A stretch of DNA of 64,000 bases from Sulfurovum sp. (GCA_027019175.1 JALUXB010000009.1:34311-98310), one strand, 5' to 3'; positions 13,520 through 25,127 are shown, numbered from the stretch's first letter. Notes: generated from the sequence alone by a model not told the origin. Program-made: numbers and translations.

Positions 13520-14758
13520 ATGTGGGACTCCTTTATGTTAAATTTGTTATACAAAGAACGTTACTCATTTCAGACCATTGGTATTGAACGAATGAAAGCG
13601 CACTATCTTTTTACCGAAAAAGATGCCAGAATACTGTACAGTCTGCAACCTATTGCACACAAAGCACTGCCTTCTATGATAGATGCATTCTACAATTTCA
13701 TTTTCAATTTTGAACATGCCAAAGTCTTTCTAAATTCGGAAGAAATTATCAGAAAGCATCGCAAAGGTATTGAACAGTGGTACATGAACCTCTTTTGCGG
13801 ACACTATGATACCGACTATTTCGAAGGACTTTCCACCATCAGTGAAACCCATGTAAAAATCGGTCTGCCTTCCCATTATGTCAATGCAGCATTCAGCTTT
13901 GTCCGCCAGTTTCTTGAAAATATGCTGATCAGGGCGGGTCATACCGACAAACTCTCCTCTTTGCACAAGATCATCGATATCAATCTTGATCTCCTGAGCC
14001 TGACTTACAAACAGGAGTCACTACAGAAACTGATTAAAAACGTAGCAGTTTTAAAGGATACCATAAAATATGGAAATATTGTTCCTTATGTCCAGCCAAT
14101 TTACAGCAATAAAACGGGAAAGATTTCACACTATGAGTGTCTCATGAGAATCCCACACAGAGAAAATTACACGGTTTGTTCCATCGTACATATGTTACAA
14201 CTCGCTAAACAGATACATCTCTACCATGACTTGATGCAACAGATGATCCAAAAGAGCTTTAATGCTTTTACACAGTTACCGCATGCATTCACTCTTAATC
14301 TCAGTTATGAAGATATTGCCAACACCGATTCGAGAAATTTTCTTGAGAAGATGCTTATGGCGCTCCCCAATCCCTCCCGTGTAACATTTGAAATTCTTGA
14401 AACCGACATGATTGCCGACTACAATATCGTTTCGGATTTTATCAAAGAGATTAAAACATATGGATCCCAAATTGCCATTGATGATTTTGGTACAGGCTAC
14501 TCCAATATGGAAAATCTTTTAAAACTGAAACCTGATTATGTCAAAATAGACGGTTCGCTTATTCGGGATATTCACCACTCGGAAAAATCACTGAAACTGG
14601 TAAAGAACATTATCAATATCAGCCGGGATATCGGTGCCAAAACAATTGCCGAACATGTTCACAATGAAGCAGTCTACACCATTCTCCATACACTCGACAT
14701 TGACTACCTGCAAGGCTTCTATCTTTGCAAGCCGTTTCCTCTCTCAGAGCTTACATAG
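13520..14758 (+). CDS. Globin-coupled sensor fused to EAL phosphodiesterase
   Basis: N-terminal protoglobin-like (FYNFIF...ISETHVKIGLPSHYVNAA); C-terminal QPIY, ECLMRI, FEILE, IAIDDFGTGYSN, VKIDGS, IAEHV, QGF. Confidence 0.85.
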   Translation: MWDSFMLNLLYKERYSFQTIGIERMKAHYLFTEKDARILYSLQPIAHKALPSMIDAFYNFIFNFEHAKVFLNSEEIIRKHRKGIEQWYMNLFCGHYDTDYFEGLSTISETHVKIGLPSHYVNAAFSFVRQFLENMLIRAGHTDKLSSLHKIIDINLDLLSLTYKQESLQKLIKNVAVLKDTIKYGNIVPYVQPIYSNKTGKISHYECLMRIPHRENYTVCSIVHMLQLAKQIHLYHDLMQQMIQKSFNAFTQLPHAFTLNLSYEDIANTDSRNFLEKMLMALPNPSRVTFEILETDMIADYNIVSDFIKEIKTYGSQIAIDDFGTGYSNMENLLKLKPDYVKIDGSLIRDIHHSEKSLKLVKNIINISRDIGAKTIAEHVHNEAVYTILHTLDIDYLQGFYLCKPFPLSELT

Positions 14759-14768
14759 AAAACATTTT

Positions 14769-16400
14769 CTAAAAAAAGAGCAACTGAATGATGTTCAGAA
14801 TGAACATTGTAATAAATCCTACTTTATAGACCATCATTTCATTACGCTCAATAAATGATGTGTGGCGGTCAAAATAGGGCTGTACTTTGTCAGGATTGTC
14901 AATTTCATAGAGCATTTCCGAATAGTTGTGGTAGCGCTTGTCCGGATCGGTCTCGATGGCACGCAGAATCACACTCTCCAGCCAGTGCGGTATTTTCGGG
15001 TTGAGCTTACTCGGATGCTTCGCATCTTTCTCGAAACCCGGAGTCTGGAACGGTTCTATTTCTCCAAACGGGAACTTCTGTGTCAATGCCTCGTAGAGTG
15101 TCACCCCTATGGCATAAATCTCTGTCTGTTCGGTAATCGGTGCCTGCTTGAAACGCTCCGGCGCAAGATAGGAAGGTGTACCCGCCCGCGTGACTGTAGA
15201 GTAGGCTTCGGTAATACTGCCAAAATCAACCATTTTGAAAACAATCTTCTCTTTTCGTTTGGTCACAATAATATTTTCAGGTTTGATATCGCCGTGTACC
15301 AGGTTGAACTTAATGAGGTACTGCGACATCTTCAGTAAAAAGTGCGCCAGTTCCACCCCAAGGTCAACACTCAGCGGCTTTTTGGAAATATATTCTTTAA
15401 GAGAAACTCCCTCGATGTATCGCATAATATAATAACGGTGTGTCCTCTTTTTCGGAATAACCGCTTTGGGGAAGAATCCGGCTTTCAAGCGGTTGGCCAT
15501 CCAGACTTCTTTCACAAAAAGATCCAGCATCACCTCATCGTCAATCGCTTCATGGGGTGCAAATTTAATCACATACTGCACCCCTTTCTTCTCACACAGC
15601 CAGGTTCTGTTGTTCTGTATCAACGGTTTGATAAGACGATAACCGTCTATCTCTTCACCTTTTTTGTACTGTTCCTGAATAATCAGGTCTGTCTGCTTCA
15701 GCTTCAGCCTCGGGTCAAGCTCTTTGATTTCAATGACCACGGCAGTGGTATCGTCAGGCAGGTCATCGTTGTGCTTTTTGCTTGCTTTTTTAACCAGAAA
15801 CGAAGCACCCACTTTGATGCCCTCTGCAAGTTCTTCGGGGGAGAGTTCATTGTAAAGCCCATCACTACAGAGCAGAATGCGGTCTCCTGCCTGCAAATTG
15901 TTCTCAAAGTAGTAAGGCTCTACACTCTCTTCAAGCCCGATGGCTGCTGTCAGCACATTCTCCATCCCTTCCTCATCCATCGCATGATCGGAGGAGAGCT
16001 GAGCAAACTGTCCGTTACGGGAGAGGTAGATACGGCTGTCACCCACATTGGCACCGTAAAGCCTGTTTCCTTCAATGACCACCAGTGTAAGGGTTGTCAC
16101 AAGCTCCTGCCGTTCATACTGCTCCATCGATTCAAGATAGAGCACACGGTTGATATTGTCAATAAAATGGCGAATGGACTTTTCCATACTCCAGCTTCGC
16201 GGACGGTTCTTCAGCGACTGCACCAGAAACTGCGCGGTACGCTTTGCCGCTTCGGCACCATGCATTGATGAGCCTACTCCATCGCAGACCACCGCAACAG
16301 TAATGTTCTCCATTACTTTGACTTCGAAATAATCATCGCCTTTAAGCTGCGTACCTTTGGCCAGCGTAAATCCGCTGGTTTCAATATTTTCTTTAGACAT
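14769..16400 (-). CDS. Bifunctional PP2C phosphatase / Hanks Ser-Thr kinase with C-terminal TM
   Basis: VCDGVG, NVGDSRIY, LLCSDGL, DDTT (PP2C); IKF, HGDIKPEN, DFG, GTPSYLAPE (kinase); hydrophobic C-terminus. Confidence 0.92.
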   Translation of the reverse strand: MSKENIETSGFTLAKGTQLKGDDYFEVKVMENITVAVVCDGVGSSMHGAEAAKRTAQFLVQSLKNRPRSWSMEKSIRHFIDNINRVLYLESMEQYERQELVTTLTLVVIEGNRLYGANVGDSRIYLSRNGQFAQLSSDHAMDEEGMENVLTAAIGLEESVEPYYFENNLQAGDRILLCSDGLYNELSPEELAEGIKVGASFLVKKASKKHNDDLPDDTTAVVIEIKELDPRLKLKQTDLIIQEQYKKGEEIDGYRLIKPLIQNNRTWLCEKKGVQYVIKFAPHEAIDDEVMLDLFVKEVWMANRLKAGFFPKAVIPKKRTHRYYIMRYIEGVSLKEYISKKPLSVDLGVELAHFLLKMSQYLIKFNLVHGDIKPENIIVTKRKEKIVFKMVDFGSITEAYSTVTRAGTPSYLAPERFKQAPITEQTEIYAIGVTLYEALTQKFPFGEIEPFQTPGFEKDAKHPSKLNPKIPHWLESVILRAIETDPDKRYHNYSEMLYEIDNPDKVQPYFDRHTSFIERNEMMVYKVGFITMFILNIIQLLFF

Positions 16401-16915: not shown

Positions 16916-18196
16916 TTAAATAATTCCCCCTGCATTGGCACCCCATGTGGTTCTCCAGCGTGTTTTAACAAGCGAAATGGCACCGATGGCAATGAGTACA
17001 AGCCCCGCAAAAATAAAGAAACCGACACTGTAGCTGTCAAACGTCCCTTTCGCCCAGCCAAGTGTTTTGACAAGGAACGTACCGCCGATCCCGCCGGCTG
17101 CACCGATGAGTCCGGTCATAATACCGATATCTTTTCCGAAGCGCTGCGGTACGAGCTGGAAAACTGCACCGTTTGCCATTCCAAGATTGGCCATGATCAA
17201 AAAGAGTACACCAATGGCAACCCAGAACGGAAGCTGTACCGCACCGCTGAGCGCCACCAGTGCAGCAACAACACCAAAAAAGATATAAAGTGCTTTGACC
17301 CCACCCATTTTGTCGGCAATACCACCGCCTACAGGACGCAACACTGCACCGGCAAAGATGGTAAGGGCTCCAAAGTAACCGGCAATGACCTTGACATTCG
17401 GTTCATGGAAAACACTCAATCCAAAAGCACTCATATCTGCCTGATACGTATTCATCAGGTAGACTTTCATATAGTTTGCAAATCCTACAAATCCGCCGAA
17501 GCTGACAGCATAAAAGAGCATAAACCACCAGCTGTCACGGTCTTTGAGCAGTTTCCAGTAATCACCCAGCTTTTTGGGACGCGGCTTGTAAACTGATTCA
17601 GGTGCATCTTTTGCCATTAAAATATAAATGATCAGCACGATGAACGAGAGCAATCCTCCAACAAGGAAAACTGCTTCCCATCCCCAAATTTCTGCGATTT
17701 TAGGTGCAAAAAGGAAGTCAACGACCACACCGATATTCCCTGCTCCGGCAATACCGAGTACGATCCCCTGAAGCTTGGGCGGATACCACTGTCCTGCCTG
17801 CGGCAGTGCCACCGCAAAGGATGCACCGGCAAAACCAAGCCCAAGTGCAACAACCAACAATTCATTATAGGTAATGCTCTCTCCTCTTGAATACGCATAG
17901 AAGAGTGATGCAATCACGATAACCTGTGCGATGATGGCAGTTTTCTTCGGTCCAATCTTGTCGACACCGAAACCAAGTACAATACGCAGCAGTGCACCTG
18001 CCAAAATCGGGATGGAAAGCAGTGTTGCAATCTGCCCTGCACTCAATGCTGTACCGTGATGAGCCAGTGATTCGTTGATCTCGGTTGCCAAAGGCCCGAG
18101 CATCGTCCATACCATAAAACTGAAATCAAAGTAGAGAAATGCCGCAAAAAGTGTCTTTGCATCTCCCTGCCCTTTAAGCGCCTTGAAGTTCGCCAT
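16916..18196 (-). CDS. narK: Nitrate/nitrite MFS transporter (NarK/NasA family)
   Basis: FAGASFAVALPQAGQWYP, GIAGAGNIG, LRPVGGGIADKMGG, GMANGAVFQLVPQRF nitrate-signature motifs. Confidence 0.93.
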   Translation of the reverse strand: MANFKALKGQGDAKTLFAAFLYFDFSFMVWTMLGPLATEINESLAHHGTALSAGQIATLLSIPILAGALLRIVLGFGVDKIGPKKTAIIAQVIVIASLFYAYSRGESITYNELLVVALGLGFAGASFAVALPQAGQWYPPKLQGIVLGIAGAGNIGVVVDFLFAPKIAEIWGWEAVFLVGGLLSFIVLIIYILMAKDAPESVYKPRPKKLGDYWKLLKDRDSWWFMLFYAVSFGGFVGFANYMKVYLMNTYQADMSAFGLSVFHEPNVKVIAGYFGALTIFAGAVLRPVGGGIADKMGGVKALYIFFGVVAALVALSGAVQLPFWVAIGVLFLIMANLGMANGAVFQLVPQRFGKDIGIMTGLIGAAGGIGGTFLVKTLGWAKGTFDSYSVGFFIFAGLVLIAIGAISLVKTRWRTTWGANAGGII

Positions 18197-18433: not shown

Positions 18434-20353
18434 ATGGAAGCATTAGCAAAAGCCAAAGAGGCAAGAAGCAAAAAGCTCAATAAAGTAGAAACGACCAAAG
18501 CGCTTAAAGACCCGATGGAGGTCTACAAGCGTTTGGAAGAGATCGCAGCAGCAGGTTATGAGGGATTAAGCAAAGAGGATTCCGCCTACTTTCTAAAGTG
18601 TTTCGGACTCTTCGATAAGGGCGAGGACTTTATGTTACGTGTGCGTATCCCCGGCGGGCAGCTGACCAATGCACAAGCGATACGCATCGGTGAAGTGGCA
18701 AAGGAGTACGGCAATGACTACATCGATATTACCACCCGTATGCAGGTGGAACTGCGCTATTTGCAGATTGCTGACATTGCAAAGGTACTCAAAGCGCTTA
18801 AAGAGGCAGGCATCTCCACCTTCCAGACCGGGGTGGACAACCCGCGAAACATCGTCACCGACCCGCTTGACGGTATCGCTTATGACAACATCATCGAGTC
18901 CATGCCCATCTTGACGCAGCTTCAGGAGATCTTCCTCGAAAATCCCGAGTGGATCTCTGCCCTGCCTCGAAAATTCAATACCGGTATTTTGGGAAGCCTG
19001 AGCAACTCCTGTAACATCTTCGGGCATGACTGTAACTTCGTACTCGCCAACAAAGACGGTAACTTTGGCTTCAACGTCTACCTTGGTGCCCGTGTCGGTG
19101 TACAGGCACGGGATGCTGACCTCTTCGTTACTCCCGAAGAGGTACCCGTATTTTTCAAAGCCCTGCTAAACGTTTTCAAAACCTACGGCTACCGCGACAA
19201 CCGCAACAAGAACCGTCTGCACTTTCTGCTGCAGGATGTGGGTATTCCTGCATTCATCGAAGCGGTCAAAGAGGAGGCCGGACTCTCCTTTGCCTCAGGC
19301 GGCATGACACTGGTGCAGTCGCAAAACATCGCGCTGGGTGCCAACCGTGTGCTGCTTAAAAACGGCACCTATGCCTACAAGGTCATCGTCCCCTCCGGTA
19401 TCTTCAGCGGAACGGATATGATCGCAGCAGCCAAAGCGGCACAAAGCTACGGCAGCGGCGACATCCGTCTCAGCTACGACCAGAACCTTTTCATTATCAA
19501 CATTGACAAAGAGAAGCTTGATGCCTTTGAGAACGATCCGCTCATTGGCAAATATGCCCAGTACAACAACCTCTATTTTCAGGATATGATTGCCTGTGCG
19601 GGAACACAGACCTGCAGCTATGGCGTCATCCCCAACAAACCCGATGCCATCGAGATGGCACACTTCCTCAACTCCGAAGTGCCCATTGCCAATGCCAACG
19701 TACGTATGAACTGGTCAGCCTGCCCCAAAGGGTGCGGCGTACACGGCATTGCCGACATCGGTTTTGAGGGATGCAAGGCAAAAGATGCCGAGGGCAACCG
19801 TGTAGATGGTGTACACCTCTTTATGGGCGGCAAGATCACCCGCCAAGCCAAAGAGGCGCACATCCTGCACAAAGCACTGCCGATCGACGAAGCCAAACAC
19901 CATGTCAAGTATCTTCTGAAAACATATGCGGTATACAAAGAGCGCGGAGAGACCTTCGAGAGTTTTGAGACACGCTTTTTCAGCAAGAACTACAGCTACC
20001 AGGCGATCAGCTTCTTTACCAAGATCAACTACATCCTCCGCGACAAACTGGGACTGGATGTAATGTTTGAGCTTGACAAAGAGCCCAAAAGTGGACGCCG
20101 TGAAGAGTACGAACTCTTTACCTTCGGACTCAAACTCTTCAAACTCCTCACGGGAGAGAAGCGTTTTGAAGCTGTCACAGGACTTGCTCCCACACTCGCA
20201 CGCCCAAGAAAGATCAAACGGGATGAAGTAAGCAAGCTCAACCCGAAAGTCCCGCCGAAACTCTCTGAAGTCATCTACAATATGACCCATGAGAACAAGA
20301 GTGAGCGTGCGCAGGTCTTCTCGGAGTTGCTTATGGCACTTAAAGAGGTGTAA
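18434..20353 (+). CDS. nirA: Ferredoxin-nitrite reductase with C-terminal extension
   Basis: MLRVRIPGG, ITTRMQVELR, ALPRKFN, siroheme/FeS ligands ACAGTQTC and SACPKGCG; nitrate-cluster context. Confidence 0.9.
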   Translation: MEALAKAKEARSKKLNKVETTKALKDPMEVYKRLEEIAAAGYEGLSKEDSAYFLKCFGLFDKGEDFMLRVRIPGGQLTNAQAIRIGEVAKEYGNDYIDITTRMQVELRYLQIADIAKVLKALKEAGISTFQTGVDNPRNIVTDPLDGIAYDNIIESMPILTQLQEIFLENPEWISALPRKFNTGILGSLSNSCNIFGHDCNFVLANKDGNFGFNVYLGARVGVQARDADLFVTPEEVPVFFKALLNVFKTYGYRDNRNKNRLHFLLQDVGIPAFIEAVKEEAGLSFASGGMTLVQSQNIALGANRVLLKNGTYAYKVIVPSGIFSGTDMIAAAKAAQSYGSGDIRLSYDQNLFIINIDKEKLDAFENDPLIGKYAQYNNLYFQDMIACAGTQTCSYGVIPNKPDAIEMAHFLNSEVPIANANVRMNWSACPKGCGVHGIADIGFEGCKAKDAEGNRVDGVHLFMGGKITRQAKEAHILHKALPIDEAKHHVKYLLKTYAVYKERGETFESFETRFFSKNYSYQAISFFTKINYILRDKLGLDVMFELDKEPKSGRREEYELFTFGLKLFKLLTGEKRFEAVTGLAPTLARPRKIKRDEVSKLNPKVPPKLSEVIYNMTHENKSERAQVFSELLMALKEV

Positions 20354-20614: not shown

Positions 20615-22222
20615 ATGGCAGTGGAACCATTGAGCAAACACACACCGTTAGAGAGCTTCATCAACCACAAGAATGACACCGGTATGCAGTGCGGCAACTA
20701 CACCATCGATATTCCCGAGCTCAAGCCCGGTGAGCAGTACCGTTTTCACTTCGATGCCACCGCCTGTGTGGGCTGTCACTGCTGTGAAGTGGCCTGTAAC
20801 GAACAAAATGCCAATCCCGACGAGATCAAATGGCGCCGTGTGGGTGAGATGGAGACCGGCTCTTTCCCTGACACACTCCAGCTTTTCAACTCGATGAGCT
20901 GTAACCACTGCATCGACCCCGAGTGTCTGCGCGGCTGCCCTACCGAGAGCTACATCAAACTTGACAACGGGATTGTCTGGCATGATGACCCAAGCTGCAT
21001 CGGATGCCAGTACTGTACCTGGAACTGTCCCTATGAGGTGCCCGTCTTCAACCCTGACCGCGGTATCGTCACTAAATGCCATATGTGTGTGGACAAGCTC
21101 GAGGCAGGACAGACACCTGCGTGTGTCCAGGCGTGTCCCGGCGGAGCCATCGAAATAGAAGCTGTCAATGTCGAGCAGTGGCTTTCAGAAGATATGGCAA
21201 AAGAGGGAGTCGCTCCCCATCTGCCTGACATCAATATCACCAAACCCACCACACGTTACACCCTGCCTGATCTTCCTGAAGGTCAGGAGATACGTCCGGC
21301 TGATGAACACATCCTCAAGCCTGCCCATGCCGAATTGCCGCTTGTCTTTATGACGGTGCTGACACAGGTTTCGGTGGGGGCTTTTCTGGCACTGTTTTTG
21401 GGGCAGCTGCTCTACTCGCTTGGCTTCAACCTGCCAAAACCAAACCTTATTATGGCGATATTGGCATTCCTGCCTGCAGCCATAGGCCTGCCGCTTTCGG
21501 CAATGCACCTTGGACGCCCCGGTAAAGCGATGAGTGCGATGAAGAACTGGAAAACTTCATGGCTCAGCCGTGAAGCGATCGCTTTGGGTGCCTATACCGG
21601 TCTGGCAACCGTTGTAGCCGGACTCTACTTCCTTGATGTCGGCGGTGTTCTTCTGCTCCTGCTTGAAGTCCTGACCCTTGGCATCGGACTCTACGGTATC
21701 TACGCGCAGTCGATGATTTACCGCATCAAAGCACGTCCAAGCTGGAACCGCAAGAGTACCACCAAACGCTTCTTCGGTTCAGGCTATGTCGGCTTCCTGC
21801 TTATCGCCACCGCTCTGCTCGCAAGCAACGGCGCGCAGGGTGCAACTGTACTGCTTGCCGTCACGCTGCTTGCAGGCATGGGGCAGGCACTGGTGATCTT
21901 TGAGGAGGTGATGTTCTACCGCCACCTCGACAAAGAAGATCCGCTCTACTATCAGTACAACCGAAGCCGCATCCTGCTGCAGGAGCACTTTGGAAACATC
22001 AAGAAGTTCCGCATATGGTCACTGGCAGCCTTTGGGCTGGCACTGCCGCTTTTTGCTATTCTCTTTACCGCCAGTGGTTTAACAGGTTTAGCAATTGCCA
22101 CACTTGTCATCGCCACACTCGGTGCCTTGGCATCCGAACTTGCCGGACGCTACCTTTTTTACCGTACTGTGGTACCATTGGGACTTGCGGGGAACTTCTT
22201 TGCGGGAAACCAGCGACATTGA
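20615..22222 (+). CDS. Fused 4Fe-4S (DmsB-like) plus DmsC/NrfD-like membrane anchor subunit
   Basis: CVGCHCCEVAC, CNHCIDPECLRGCP, CIGCQYCTWNCP, KCHMC..CVQACP then ELPLVFMTVLTQ, SAMHLGRP, SWLSRE and multiple TM helices. Confidence 0.88.
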   Translation: MAVEPLSKHTPLESFINHKNDTGMQCGNYTIDIPELKPGEQYRFHFDATACVGCHCCEVACNEQNANPDEIKWRRVGEMETGSFPDTLQLFNSMSCNHCIDPECLRGCPTESYIKLDNGIVWHDDPSCIGCQYCTWNCPYEVPVFNPDRGIVTKCHMCVDKLEAGQTPACVQACPGGAIEIEAVNVEQWLSEDMAKEGVAPHLPDINITKPTTRYTLPDLPEGQEIRPADEHILKPAHAELPLVFMTVLTQVSVGAFLALFLGQLLYSLGFNLPKPNLIMAILAFLPAAIGLPLSAMHLGRPGKAMSAMKNWKTSWLSREAIALGAYTGLATVVAGLYFLDVGGVLLLLLEVLTLGIGLYGIYAQSMIYRIKARPSWNRKSTTKRFFGSGYVGFLLIATALLASNGAQGATVLLAVTLLAGMGQALVIFEEVMFYRHLDKEDPLYYQYNRSRILLQEHFGNIKKFRIWSLAAFGLALPLFAILFTASGLTGLAIATLVIATLGALASELAGRYLFYRTVVPLGLAGNFFAGNQRH

Positions 22223-22255
22223 CAAAGAAGATATACTGTACTATAATATGTACAG
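22219..22255 (+). promoter_or_regulatory. yefM-yoeB sigma70 promoter and operator
   Basis: TTGACA 22219-22224, 17-bp spacer, TATAAT 22242-22247; inverted CTGTAC/GTACAG flank the -10. Confidence 0.85.
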
Positions 22256-22279
22256 GATTTAGAACATAAAGGAGTTGTA

Positions 22280-22534
22280 ATGCAGGTTGTCAACTTTACA
22301 GAAGCAAGAAACAATTTAAAAGCACTCTGTGATACCGTCTATGAGAACAGTGAAGAGGTCATCATCAATCGCAAAAACGGAGAAAATGTAGTCATTCTTT
22401 CATTGGAGAGCTATAATGCACTACAGGAGACTGCTTACCTGCTGGCGTCTGCCAAAAACAGAGAACGTCTGCTTAGTTCACTTGAGCATGCCCGTACAGG
22501 CAAAGTAACACAAAGAGAATTAGCAGAGTCATGA
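22280..22534 (+). CDS. yefM: YefM/Phd family antitoxin
   Basis: NFTEARNNLK, VIINRKNG, YNALQETAYLLASAKNRERL. Confidence 0.93.
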   Translation: MQVVNFTEARNNLKALCDTVYENSEEVIINRKNGENVVILSLESYNALQETAYLLASAKNRERLLSSLEHARTGKVTQRELAES

Positions 22535-22791
22535 ATCTTCTTTTCACAGAGGAAGCATGGGAAGACTACTGCTATTGGCAGCAGTACGATAAAAAGTTAC
22601 TCAAAAAGGTAAACAGCCTTTTAAAAGAGATACAAAGAAACCCGTTTGAGGGTACCGGAAAACCTGAAGCACTAAAACATGAACTTCAGGGATGTTGGTC
22701 ACGGCGCATTAATCAGGAACACCGCCTGGTCTATGAGGTCTTGGACACACAGATAAATATCTTGGCTTGCCGGTATCATTACGGTAATTAG
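22531..22791 (+). CDS. yoeB: YoeB/Txe family toxin
   Basis: AWEDYCYWQ, GTGKPEALKHELQGCWSRRINQEHRLVY, CRYHY; ATGA overlap with antitoxin. Confidence 0.95.
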   Translation: MNLLFTEEAWEDYCYWQQYDKKLLKKVNSLLKEIQRNPFEGTGKPEALKHELQGCWSRRINQEHRLVYEVLDTQINILACRYHYGN

Positions 22792-22793
22792 TA

Positions 22794-25127
22794 ATGGAGA
22801 ATAATATGAGTCTCATAGACAAAGCAAAAAACTTTCTCGGCTTCGACATCAAAGAGGACAAATACGCCCTCGTCGACGACCCAATATTTGGTAAAGTTGC
22901 CAAAGCCAAAGCCCCTGACAAGTGGGTACGAAGCACCTGCGGCTACTGCGGTGTAGGCTGCGGCATGTACATCGGTGTCAAAGACGGTAAAGCGGTCTAC
23001 TCCAAAGGCGATCCGCTCCATCCGGTCAATATGGGCACACTCTGCCCAAAAGGCTTGAGTGAGCACAGAATGGTACGTGCCGACAACCGTATACCTACGC
23101 CGATGCTCAAAAAAAACGGCACGCTTCAGCCTGTTTCATGGGATGAAGCATTCAGCCATACTGCAGAAGAATTCAAACGTATTCAACAACAGTACGGCAA
23201 AGGTGCGGTTGCTGTGGTCTCTACTGGTCAACTACTAACAGAAGAGTTCTATGCGCTGGGCAAATTTGTGCAGCTTGGGCTTGAAACAAACAACTATGAC
23301 GGCAATACCACACTCTGTATGGCAAGTGCCGTCATGGGATACAAACAAACCTTTGGCTCAGATGGTCCTACCGGATGTTATGAGGACTTTGAAAAAGCAG
23401 ATGTCATTATGCTTATCGGTGCAAACATTGCCGACAATCACCCTATTTTGAAGCTGCATATTGCCAAAAACAAAAAAACCACAGGGAAAAAACCAACCAT
23501 TATTGTTGTTGACCCCAGAAAATCCAAAACCTCACAGATGGCAGACATTTTTGTGCCACTTAAACCACGCTCCGATCTGGCGCTCATCAATGGTCTGTGC
23601 TACATCATCATGGAACAGGGATGGGAGGATGAAAACTTCATCAAAGAGCGCACCAACGGCTACAGAGAATTCAAAAAACACATCATGGAGAACTACCCGC
23701 CACAAGAGGTTGCTCACATCACCGGCATCGATGTCAAGGAGCTTTACAACCTTGCACGCATTTACGCCGGTGCGGATGCGGTAATGAGTGCCTGGACCAT
23801 GGGTGTCAACCAAAGCTCCATCGGAACCGATACGGTCTCTGCCATCTGTAACCTTGCACTCATCACCGGCAACCTTGGCAAAGAGGGAGCTTCACCTATG
23901 TCCATCACCGGACAGTGCAACGCCATGGGTACACGGGAGTTTGGCTTTACCTCATCCATCCCCGGATACCGCAACTACGCCAGTGAAAGTGACCGAAGAG
24001 AGTTTGCCGAGATCATCAGTGTATCCGAAGAGCTCATCCCCACTGCAAGAGGCTACGCCTACCCGCAGATTATCGAGGCGATCAACCGCGGCGAGATCAA
24101 AGCACTCTGGGTTGTTGCCACCAATCCACTGGTAAGCTACCCTGATCAAAACGGACTTAGAGAAGCACTCAAAAAACTTGACATGCTTGTGGTACAGGAT
24201 GCCTTCATGTCCGATACGGCACAAATAGCCGATGTGGTCTTCGCCGCAGCGACATGGAGCGAAAAAGAGGGTTGCTACACCAACAGTGAGCGCCGCTGCA
24301 ACTATGCCAAAAAAGCCATAGAACCTCTTGAACAGAGCAAGGCAGACTTCTACATTGTCAAAGAGTTCTCCAAATATTTCGGCGACAAACACGACCTGCT
24401 CTTCAAAAATCTCAATACCCCACGAGATACTTTCGAGGAGATCAAACGCGTCAGCAAAGGCAGACTCTGCGACTACAGCGGTATGAGCTACGAACTCATT
24501 GAGGAGCTTGGCGGCATCCAGTGGCCATGTAATGACAAAGCCCCCAAAGGCACCAAACGCCTCTACTCCGACGATATGCCATGTCCTACCCCTGATGGCA
24601 AAGCACAGCTGCTGCCGGTTGACTGGGTACCGCTGAGTGAAATGCAGTGCAAAGAACTGCCTGTCATGCTCAATACCGGACGAACGGTAGAACAGTTCCA
24701 TACCCGTACCAAAACCGGTACCATCGGCATCCTCGATGCACTGGCTCCCGAAGCATGGATAGACATTAATCCCAAAGATGCTGCCAAACTCAAAGTCAAA
24801 AGCGGAGACCGCATCGCCATTTCCGGCAGCCGCGGGCGTGTAGAGGATGTCATCGTCAAAGTGAGCGAAACCGTACGGGAAGGCAACATCTTCGTACCGT
24901 TCCACTTTAACGAACAGCTTATCAATGCCGTTACTATCCCCGAGTTCGACCCCAAATCCTTCGAGCCAAACTACAAACAGTGTGCTGTACAGCTGCACTC
25001 CGAAGCGGTACCCGAAGGCATCGTCTATGAAGAGCTGGAAATCAGCGGCTACCTGGAGAATGTAAAAGTATACAAAGAGGAAGAGACGGCACAAAACGAT
25101 ATGGCTGCTGCAGAGGCGCAAAAATAG
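22794..25127 (+). CDS. Molybdopterin nitrate reductase catalytic subunit (assimilatory NasA/NarB-like, cytoplasmic)
   Basis: STCGYCGVGCG..GTLCPKG, NTTLCMASAV, SITGQCNAMG, LNTGRTVEQFHTRTKTG, EPNYKQCAV; no Tat signal. Confidence 0.9.
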   Translation: MENNMSLIDKAKNFLGFDIKEDKYALVDDPIFGKVAKAKAPDKWVRSTCGYCGVGCGMYIGVKDGKAVYSKGDPLHPVNMGTLCPKGLSEHRMVRADNRIPTPMLKKNGTLQPVSWDEAFSHTAEEFKRIQQQYGKGAVAVVSTGQLLTEEFYALGKFVQLGLETNNYDGNTTLCMASAVMGYKQTFGSDGPTGCYEDFEKADVIMLIGANIADNHPILKLHIAKNKKTTGKKPTIIVVDPRKSKTSQMADIFVPLKPRSDLALINGLCYIIMEQGWEDENFIKERTNGYREFKKHIMENYPPQEVAHITGIDVKELYNLARIYAGADAVMSAWTMGVNQSSIGTDTVSAICNLALITGNLGKEGASPMSITGQCNAMGTREFGFTSSIPGYRNYASESDRREFAEIISVSEELIPTARGYAYPQIIEAINRGEIKALWVVATNPLVSYPDQNGLREALKKLDMLVVQDAFMSDTAQIADVVFAAATWSEKEGCYTNSERRCNYAKKAIEPLEQSKADFYIVKEFSKYFGDKHDLLFKNLNTPRDTFEEIKRVSKGRLCDYSGMSYELIEELGGIQWPCNDKAPKGTKRLYSDDMPCPTPDGKAQLLPVDWVPLSEMQCKELPVMLNTGRTVEQFHTRTKTGTIGILDALAPEAWIDINPKDAAKLKVKSGDRIAISGSRGRVEDVIVKVSETVREGNIFVPFHFNEQLINAVTIPEFDPKSFEPNYKQCAVQLHSEAVPEGIVYEELEISGYLENVKVYKEEETAQNDMAAAEAQK

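Follow-up and report, generated by a model that had tools for sequence, protein, structure and literature searches.

A kinase C-lobe segment at the end of a nitrite reductase from Sulfurovum sp. and its likely source in the kinase family of the same gene cluster

Nitrite reductases in which the catalytic core is followed by a further module are known from Plectonema and Leptolyngbya, whose NirA has a ferredoxin-like C-terminal extension. In Hanks-type Ser/Thr kinases, contacts mediated by the C-lobe are represented by the front-to-front dimers of PknB and by the PknB-GarA complex. Kinase C-lobe folds also occur in the KIND domain of eukaryotes, which has a length of about 200 amino acids. The KIND domain is a catalytically empty kinase C-lobe that acts as a protein-binding module inside a non-kinase protein (PMC2064798, PMC3934834). 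A nasA-ppkB arrangement has been described in Pseudomonas sp. UW4 (PMC3596284). Here we report on a stretch of 64,000 nucleotides from Sulfurovum sp. (GCA_027019175.1 JALUXB010000009.1:34311-98310; this whole stretch is referred to as the window), in which the nitrite reductase gene nirA encodes a C-terminal tail absent from solved enzymes of this type. Residues 557 to 639 of this NirA are homologous to helices αF to αI (subdomains IX to XI) of Hanks Ser/Thr kinases. The parts of NirA and of the neighboring kinase that enter the comparison are the following, with positions counted in the window.

18434 to 20353, plus strand: nirA coding sequence, 639 amino acids, a siroheme/4Fe-4S nitrite reductase core with a C-terminal extension (from the list of open reading frames [ORFs], Pfam, and Foldseek)
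18434 to 19978, plus strand: NirA catalytic core, residues 1 to about 515 (from alignments with nitrite reductases in the PDB and the length of tail-less orthologues)
19991 to 20101, plus strand: segment preceding the tail, residues 520 to 556, a predicted helix (522 to 538) and an extended linker (alignment A1, AlphaFold2 [AF2])
20102 to 20350, plus strand: kinase-derived module, residues 557 to 639, with αF, a degenerate αG region, αH, and αI (Hanks subdomains IX to XI)
14769 to 16400, minus strand: tail-anchored fusion of a PP2C phosphatase with a Hanks kinase, PpkB-type, 543 amino acids (Pfam), the likely donor family
14892 to 15137, minus strand: kinase residues 422 to 503 (αF to αI), homologous to the NirA tail (hhalign columns, six-frame match)

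A preliminary description of this DNA had aligned the end of NirA by eye with subdomains IX to XI of the neighboring kinase, and the likeness was borne out. Positions 20108 to 20353 correspond to NirA residues 559 to 639 plus the stop codon, and the sequence quoted for them was correct. When residues 515 to 639 were compared by BLASTP with the 543-amino-acid PP2C-kinase, NirA 557 to 633 aligned with kinase residues 424 to 497 (29% identity over 78 columns; E value of 1e-6, for this single pairwise comparison), and SKLNPK.P, VI, the subdomain XI Arg, and SE.L, the features previously listed as shared, are all common to the two proteins in this alignment. The NCBIfam model PknB_PASTA_kin matches NirA 561 to 638 at model positions 191 to 267 (E value, 7e-4). 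The five matches of the tail obtained by phmmer among PDB sequences are all kinases, and phmmer run exhaustively against 1.8 billion representative proteins returned 33 matches, with NirA tails or fragments in the leading positions, followed by the C-terminal ends of genuine Pkinase domains. A profile was built from 14 tails (alignment A1) that are only 25 to 37% identical to the tail in the window; it has 103 matches in the PDB at E values of ≤1, and the 60 listed are all kinases, always matched at αF to αI, with StkP and PknB-type kinases scoring best (7e-5). Alignment by hhalign of this profile with a profile of the cluster kinase (15 orthologues) gave a probability of 98% and an E value of 1.5e-13 over 81 columns, corresponding to kinase residues 422 to 503. 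The residues characteristic of subdomains IX to XI, namely, E560/G565, R625, and E631, vary little or not at all among the tails.

The predicted structure agrees with this sequence evidence. AF2 modeled residues 505 to 639 with a mean predicted local distance difference test (pLDDT) value of 85 and a predicted template modeling (pTM) score of 0.81, placing helices at 557 to 573, 598 to 602, 608 to 617, and 629 to 638. The top 50 Foldseek matches of this model in the PDB are all kinase catalytic domains, the best being PknB of Mycobacterium tuberculosis (2fum_B; 81 columns; root mean square deviation, 4.1 Å), so that the profile and the structure comparison proposed in the preliminary description both led to kinases.

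Direct reading of residues 505 to 639 upheld the earlier statement that no catalytic loop or DFG motif is present, and neither the HRD/HGD...N catalytic loop nor DFG nor APE was found in this region or in the 13 other tails of alignment A1. The kinase N-lobe (Gly-rich loop, β3 Lys, and αC Glu) is not in the tail, profile matches beginning at about kinase position 190. With only some 83 residues (αF to αI), and lacking both N-lobe and catalytic segments, the NirA tail is neither a kinase nor a pseudokinase. Pfam Pkinase gave no match to the tail in the window or to 14 diverse tails even at E values of ≤10, and Pfam KIND gave none to 14 tails at the same threshold. The tail lacks annotation because Pfam gives no match, which is not an argument against homology; the Pfam domains precomputed in public databases for tailed NirAs are NIR_SIR domains only, and this constitutes an annotation gap.

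The core of the protein is recognized by Pfam NIR_SIR (E value, 2.5e-37) and NIR_SIR_ferr (E value, 6e-33) and has two NIR_SIR_ferr/NIR_SIR repeats and the Cys cluster for 4Fe-4S/siroheme; C388, C394, C430, and C434 are invariant in the alignment. The AF2 model of full-length NirA (pLDDT, 89.6; pTM, 0.87) aligned with tobacco and spinach nitrite reductases over about 510 columns (TMt, 0.84 to 0.85), and its Foldseek matches begin with nitrite and sulfite reductase structures, directly followed by kinases. The NCBIfam equivalog score is 361.6, under the cutoff of 594; the context of narK and a nasA-type reductase favors nitrite rather than sulfite as the substrate. The best database matches of NirA are proteins labeled Sulfurovum. 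Nitrite reductase chains in the PDB cover query residues 8 to 507 (tobacco) and 64 to 512 (M. tuberculosis), near their own C termini, in keeping with the earlier statement that ferredoxin-dependent enzymes normally end soon after the siroheme-binding domain. Since the solved enzymes stop at the equivalent of residues 507 to 512, the NirA tail is extra to the normal enzyme. The segment preceding the tail is conserved among tailed NirAs (F527 is invariant; pLDDT, 86 to 95), and no kinase similarity was detectable in residues 520 to 556, hhalign aligning only the later part of the tail. The helix at 522 to 538 as an equivalent of αE and the motif LDKEP as a relic of the catalytic loop were both rejected, as no profile alignment backs either of them and neither is conserved in other tails.

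The neighboring protein combines a PP2C domain (Pfam PP2C_2; E value, 7e-20), a Pkinase domain (E value, 4.6e-26), and a conserved hydrophobic C terminus that serves as an anchor, and its gene lies beside that for a nitrate/nitrite transporter, all of which are features of PpkB-type proteins. It is encoded by the sole Pkinase gene detectable in the 2.2-Mb genome (G000), and the six-frame match of the NirA tail in this genome (G000:C9:49214-49447) corresponds to positions 14904 to 15137 of the window. A hidden Markov model (HMM) of the tail was run across 401 genomes of the class Campylobacteria. NirA tails scored 60 to 176 bits and 44 NarK-linked kinase orthologues scored 37 to 57 bits, while every other Hanks kinase of the class remained at ≤33 bits (24 bits for a second PP2C-kinase type) and PDB kinases remained at ≤26 bits; among the database-wide phmmer matches, single domains reached 40 bits at best. 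Residues shared by the tails and the NarK-linked kinases point in the same direction. The subdomain IX Asp, at tail position 560, is normally invariant in kinases; this position is Glu in 25 of 25 tails and 15 of 15 NarK-linked kinases and Asp in all 29 other kinase domains, which were picked by single-sequence search. Tails and NarK-linked kinases also differ from these 29 domains in having Glu at position 557, Tyr at 578, Phe at 584, and an aromatic residue followed by Ser/Thr at 629 and 630. In the window, the kinase encoded at 14769 to 16400 has HGD in place of HRD, together with the Glu in subdomain IX. By virtue of the HMM scores and the shared derived residues, the resemblance to the cluster's own kinase stands at the family level, and the sequence comparisons support the tail having been captured from the transporter-linked PP2C/Hanks kinase family (PpkB-type) of the same cluster. 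The earlier suggestion of a captured, noncatalytic kinase C-lobe is thus in accord with the profiles, the predicted structure, and the closeness to NarK-linked kinases.

About 50 of the 401 Campylobacteria genomes carry the tail; it also occurs in complete genomes, and the database proteins that have it number more than 380. Among named loci, those encoding a tailed NirA belong to Sulfurovum, Nitratifractor, Sulfurimonas, Hydrogenimonas, and Nautiliaceae, and the one organism-labeled tail-like protein from the exhaustive search is from Campylobacterota. Tail-less NirAs, of 516 to 535 amino acids, are found in Arcobacter, Poseidonibacter, Aliarcobacter, and some Sulfurimonas and Sulfurovaceae. 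The tail is not an ordinary NirA domain, being absent from plant and mycobacterial nitrite reductases as well as from a nested clade of Campylobacterales. In a tree of NirA cores rooted with paralogues as the outgroup, the tail-less NirAs form one clade that is sister to the tailed clade of Sulfurovum (support, 1.00) and is nested inside other tailed lineages (supports, 0.94 and 0.98), which indicates one ancient gain and one loss, with locus L023 truncated separately. It is therefore well supported by the phylogeny that the tail was gained once, before the NirA family of Campylobacterales diversified, with a later loss in a single nested clade. For pairs of closely related Sulfurovum, the ratio of nonsynonymous to synonymous substitutions (dN/dS) is 0.016 to 0.058 in the kinase-like segment and 0.033 to 0.050 in the core. 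As the ratio for the tail is as low as that for the core, the tail is maintained by selection, and strong purifying selection on par with that on the core is well supported by these values.

We propose that the tail is a noncatalytic remnant of the C-lobe of the cluster's PP2C/Hanks kinase and that it probably serves as an interaction module for the parent kinase, a reading to which we assign a probability of about 0.55. A partial duplicate of the kinase gene would have been fused to the 3' end of nirA, once and early in Campylobacterales, and the PP2C domain, N-lobe, catalytic loop, activation segment, and membrane anchor would have been deleted from the fused copy, so that the surviving helical bundle could act as a module for protein-protein interaction. 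When a self-associating domain is duplicated, the copy tends to go on binding the original, and it is usually through the C-lobe that kinases dimerize and dock substrates; for these reasons the most economical and likeliest partner would be the membrane-anchored kinase/phosphatase itself, and docking of the NirA tail to it is plausible by analogy. NirA might in this way be brought to a NarK-kinase assembly as a substrate or regulatory partner, or placed there to consume nitrite where nitrate enters. A bolder version, which we regard as doubtful, has the tail pairing C-lobe to C-lobe with the membrane-anchored PP2C/kinase in a NarK-kinase-NirA assembly, through which the state or abundance of the nitrite reductase would feed back on transporter phosphorylation. 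If true, this would make the tail a half kinase that a bacterial enzyme has built in as a regulatory subunit for the kinase from which the tail derives, and the PpkB family would gain its first physical partner.

The proposed link between tail and kinase was examined by their co-occurrence, as had been suggested in the preliminary description, and the result supports it in part. An orthologous kinase is present in 40 of the 49 genomes with a tailed full-length NirA, and 4 more have only the other PP2C-kinase type, located next to nirA; 5 are without a PP2C-kinase. On the other side, the kinase tracks the transporter and persists beside tail-less NirA. The comparative evidence thus allows docking to the kinase without requiring it, and a number of observations weigh against such docking or soften the case for it. 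The association between tail and kinase among NirA-bearing genomes is weak (Fisher P values, which ignore phylogeny, of 0.07 for the orthologue and 0.016 for any PP2C-kinase), and 4 of 8 genomes with a tail-less NirA orthologue keep the kinase, which is retained next to the tail-less gene in Arcobacter, Poseidonibacter, and others. In these tail-less lineages αF to αI of the kinase are no less conserved and show no diagnostic substitutions. Three of the five genomes without a PP2C-kinase (G264, G341, and G263) combine a good tail with no Pkinase match, in assemblies fragmented into 140 to 210 contigs. In most loci with readable flanks the kinase gene directly follows narK, often overlapping it; its synteny is with the transporter gene (NarK or FNT channel) and not with nirA, from which it is separated by 10 to 16 kb in L012, L022, and L023. 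This adjacency indicates that the transporter is the primary genetic partner of the kinase. The invariant PYGEIEPFQxPxF loop between αF and αG of the kinase is not retained in the tail, where the matching region varies and is modeled with the lowest pLDDT. In a tree of the αF to αI segments of about 80 residues, the tails, the NarK-linked kinases, and the other kinases form three clades at one node, and this tree therefore cannot settle which are sister groups. The Foldseek E values of the tail (0.013 to 0.16) are weak because the module is small, and the AF2 input alignments are shallow (14 and 19 sequences).

As a second reading, the tail, its kinase ancestry notwithstanding, may now serve NirA independently of the kinase. 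It could contact some other protein (the nitrate reductase, the FeS-membrane electron donor, and a ferredoxin are candidates) or act in oligomerization, stabilization, or autoregulation. We consider such a role possible and give it roughly half the weight of docking to the kinase. The unaltered kinase in lineages that have lost the tail and the missing αF-αG signature both speak for it, as does the good conservation of the tail (112 to 162 bits) in seven genomes without a NarK-linked kinase (G346, G254, G166, G394, G264, G341, and G263); however, four of the seven have another PP2C-kinase beside nirA, and the remaining three are the fragmented assemblies. The pTM of the full-length model and its high pLDDT through the linker are compatible with a tail packed on the core, and in one Sulfurovum metagenome-assembled genome (MAG) the tailed NirA is in frame with a NarB-like nitrate reductase. 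Yet no neighboring gene family tracks the presence of the tail: the search of neighbor families at nirA loci for a third gene of this kind returned only antisense ORFs and lineage-specific neighbors. The net charge of the tail, which ranges from +5 to −5, rules out a conserved basic charge for ferredoxin docking and argues against a simple electrostatic patch.

The family-specific likeness of the tail to the kinase C-lobe, with PknB-type structures as its best structural matches, could also be read as mimicry. PknB-type kinases trans-activate via contacts of the C-lobe (αG), and a decoy that competes with self-association of the kinase (trans-autophosphorylation) or with a kinase substrate would let the abundance of NirA tune kinase output towards the transporter. 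We judge this unlikely, since the tail has not conserved the αG-region signature found in the kinase and dimerization of the cluster PP2C-kinase is presupposed by analogy, and the comparative counterevidence is the same as that facing docking. That the tail has no function, being either a neutral remnant of an old fusion between genes or similar to a kinase by chance, is very improbable. Its loss in one clade without loss of nirA, and its truncation in L023, show it to be dispensable in some lineages, but neutrality is contradicted by a dN/dS as low as that of the catalytic core, by invariant residues kept across such divergent tails, and by its presence in complete genomes and hundreds of database proteins, while chance is excluded by the hhalign E value. 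An interaction module directed at the parent kinase remains the reading that we prefer.

The other genes of the cluster in the window are the following.

16916 to 18196, minus strand: narK, MFS transporter for nitrate/nitrite, on the strand of the kinase gene and immediately upstream of it (NCBIfam TIGR00886; E value, 3.7e-72)
20615 to 25127, plus strand: cluster context downstream of nirA (NCBIfam matches, ORF list), made up of the next three entries
20615 to 22222, plus strand: 4Fe-4S/polytopic membrane protein
22280 to 22791, plus strand: yefM-yoeB-like gene pair
22794 to 25127, plus strand: NasA/NasC-type molybdopterin nitrate reductase

The two small ORFs at 22280 to 22791 (plus strand; 84 and 86 amino acids), which separate the FeS-membrane gene from the nitrate reductase gene, resemble by eye a YefM/Phd antitoxin and a YoeB/Txe toxin; in close relatives (e.g., L029 and L036) the FeS-membrane and nitrate reductase genes are adjacent. 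A gene at 13520 to 14758 (plus strand), which directly adjoins the kinase gene at its 3' end, lies on the other strand, and is convergent with it, encodes a protein of 412 amino acids with a C-terminal EAL (cyclic di-GMP phosphodiesterase) domain and an N-terminal half without assignment.

Several loci outside the window depart from this organization. At L014:6678-11321 (plus strand; G346, Sulfurimonas-type), an FNT channel gene is followed by a PP2C-kinase gene of the second type, whose product is about 26% identical to the kinase in the window, and then by a tailed nirA, an order that indicates a transporter-kinase module with at least two transporter classes in this bacterial order. Three neighbor families of about 460, 272, and 268 amino acids, sized like ABC transporter genes, occur at 6 to 8 of 12 tail-less nirA loci and at 2 to 3 of 33 tailed ones, counts that ignore phylogeny; the loci concerned are L016 to L021, L065, L066, L076, L086, L093, and L096. 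The in-frame union of tailed NirA with a NarB-like molybdopterin nitrate reductase is found at L031:3143-7063 (minus strand; Sulfurovum sp. MAG GYT0_bin.8) as an ORF of 1,306 amino acids, whose junction reads ...VFSELLVALKEIKELPRTVCSYCGIGC... In its close relatives L046 and L039 nirA and the nitrate reductase gene are separate and abutting, and the union, seen in a single MAG, may be genuine or may result from misassembly. A reading frame of 1,027 amino acids in G263 was dismissed as a fusion, being an upstream open frame that overlaps nasA. Intact ORFs of 240 to 285 amino acids at L104:6013-6864 (plus strand; G334) and in P0127 and P0154 join the N-terminal ferredoxin-like half-domain of NirA to the tail, with most of the catalytic core missing and with deletion boundaries that differ between the two cases; neither a full NirA nor a PP2C-kinase was seen in G334. 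These short proteins may be remnants or small regulators.

The presence of tailed and tail-less NirAs in the same bacterial order amounts to a natural experiment, and since the donor kinase is still encoded nearby, source and product of the evolutionary event can both be studied. The tail also gives a concrete hypothesis for the widespread, uncharacterized transporter-linked PP2C/kinase family of nitrate assimilation clusters. A literature search for a described NirA tail, PA1782, or a bacterial nitrate-transporter kinase returned only the UW4 genome paper (PMC3596284), and as far as found in the literature searched, a core-less kinase C-lobe on a bacterial metabolic enzyme has not been described earlier.

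The kinase in the window shares the architecture of PpkB/PA1782-type proteins, which are tail-anchored PP2C/Ser-Thr-kinases encoded beside nitrate/nitrite transporters, and its gene follows narK; compared with this kinase, the NirA tail keeps only the equivalent of residues 422 to 503. Pseudomonas has NasDE (NirBD type) as its nitrite reductase, for which no tail is reported. Like the NirAs of Plectonema and Leptolyngbya, the Sulfurovum enzyme consists of a core and an extra C-terminal module; the extension of those proteins is an electron-carrier domain, whereas the Sulfurovum tail is a fragment of a signaling protein without cofactor motifs. Pseudokinases resemble the tail in their noncatalytic use of a kinase surface but keep the whole bilobal fold, whereas the tail has no N-lobe, catalytic loop, or activation segment. 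PknB-type structures, including that of PknB with its substrate GarA (6i2p), are among the best structural matches. The closest known concept to the NirA tail is the eukaryotic KIND domain, with which it shares the architecture of a noncatalytic part of a kinase C-lobe within a non-kinase protein. By sequence the two differ, the tails giving no match to the KIND profile (Pfam PF16474/SMART KIND). KIND is found in animals and their relatives, comprises the whole C-lobe, and has no parent kinase next door, whereas the NirA tail is bacterial, comprises αF to αI only (about 83 amino acids), is carried by a redox enzyme, and has its donor kinase family in the same gene cluster.

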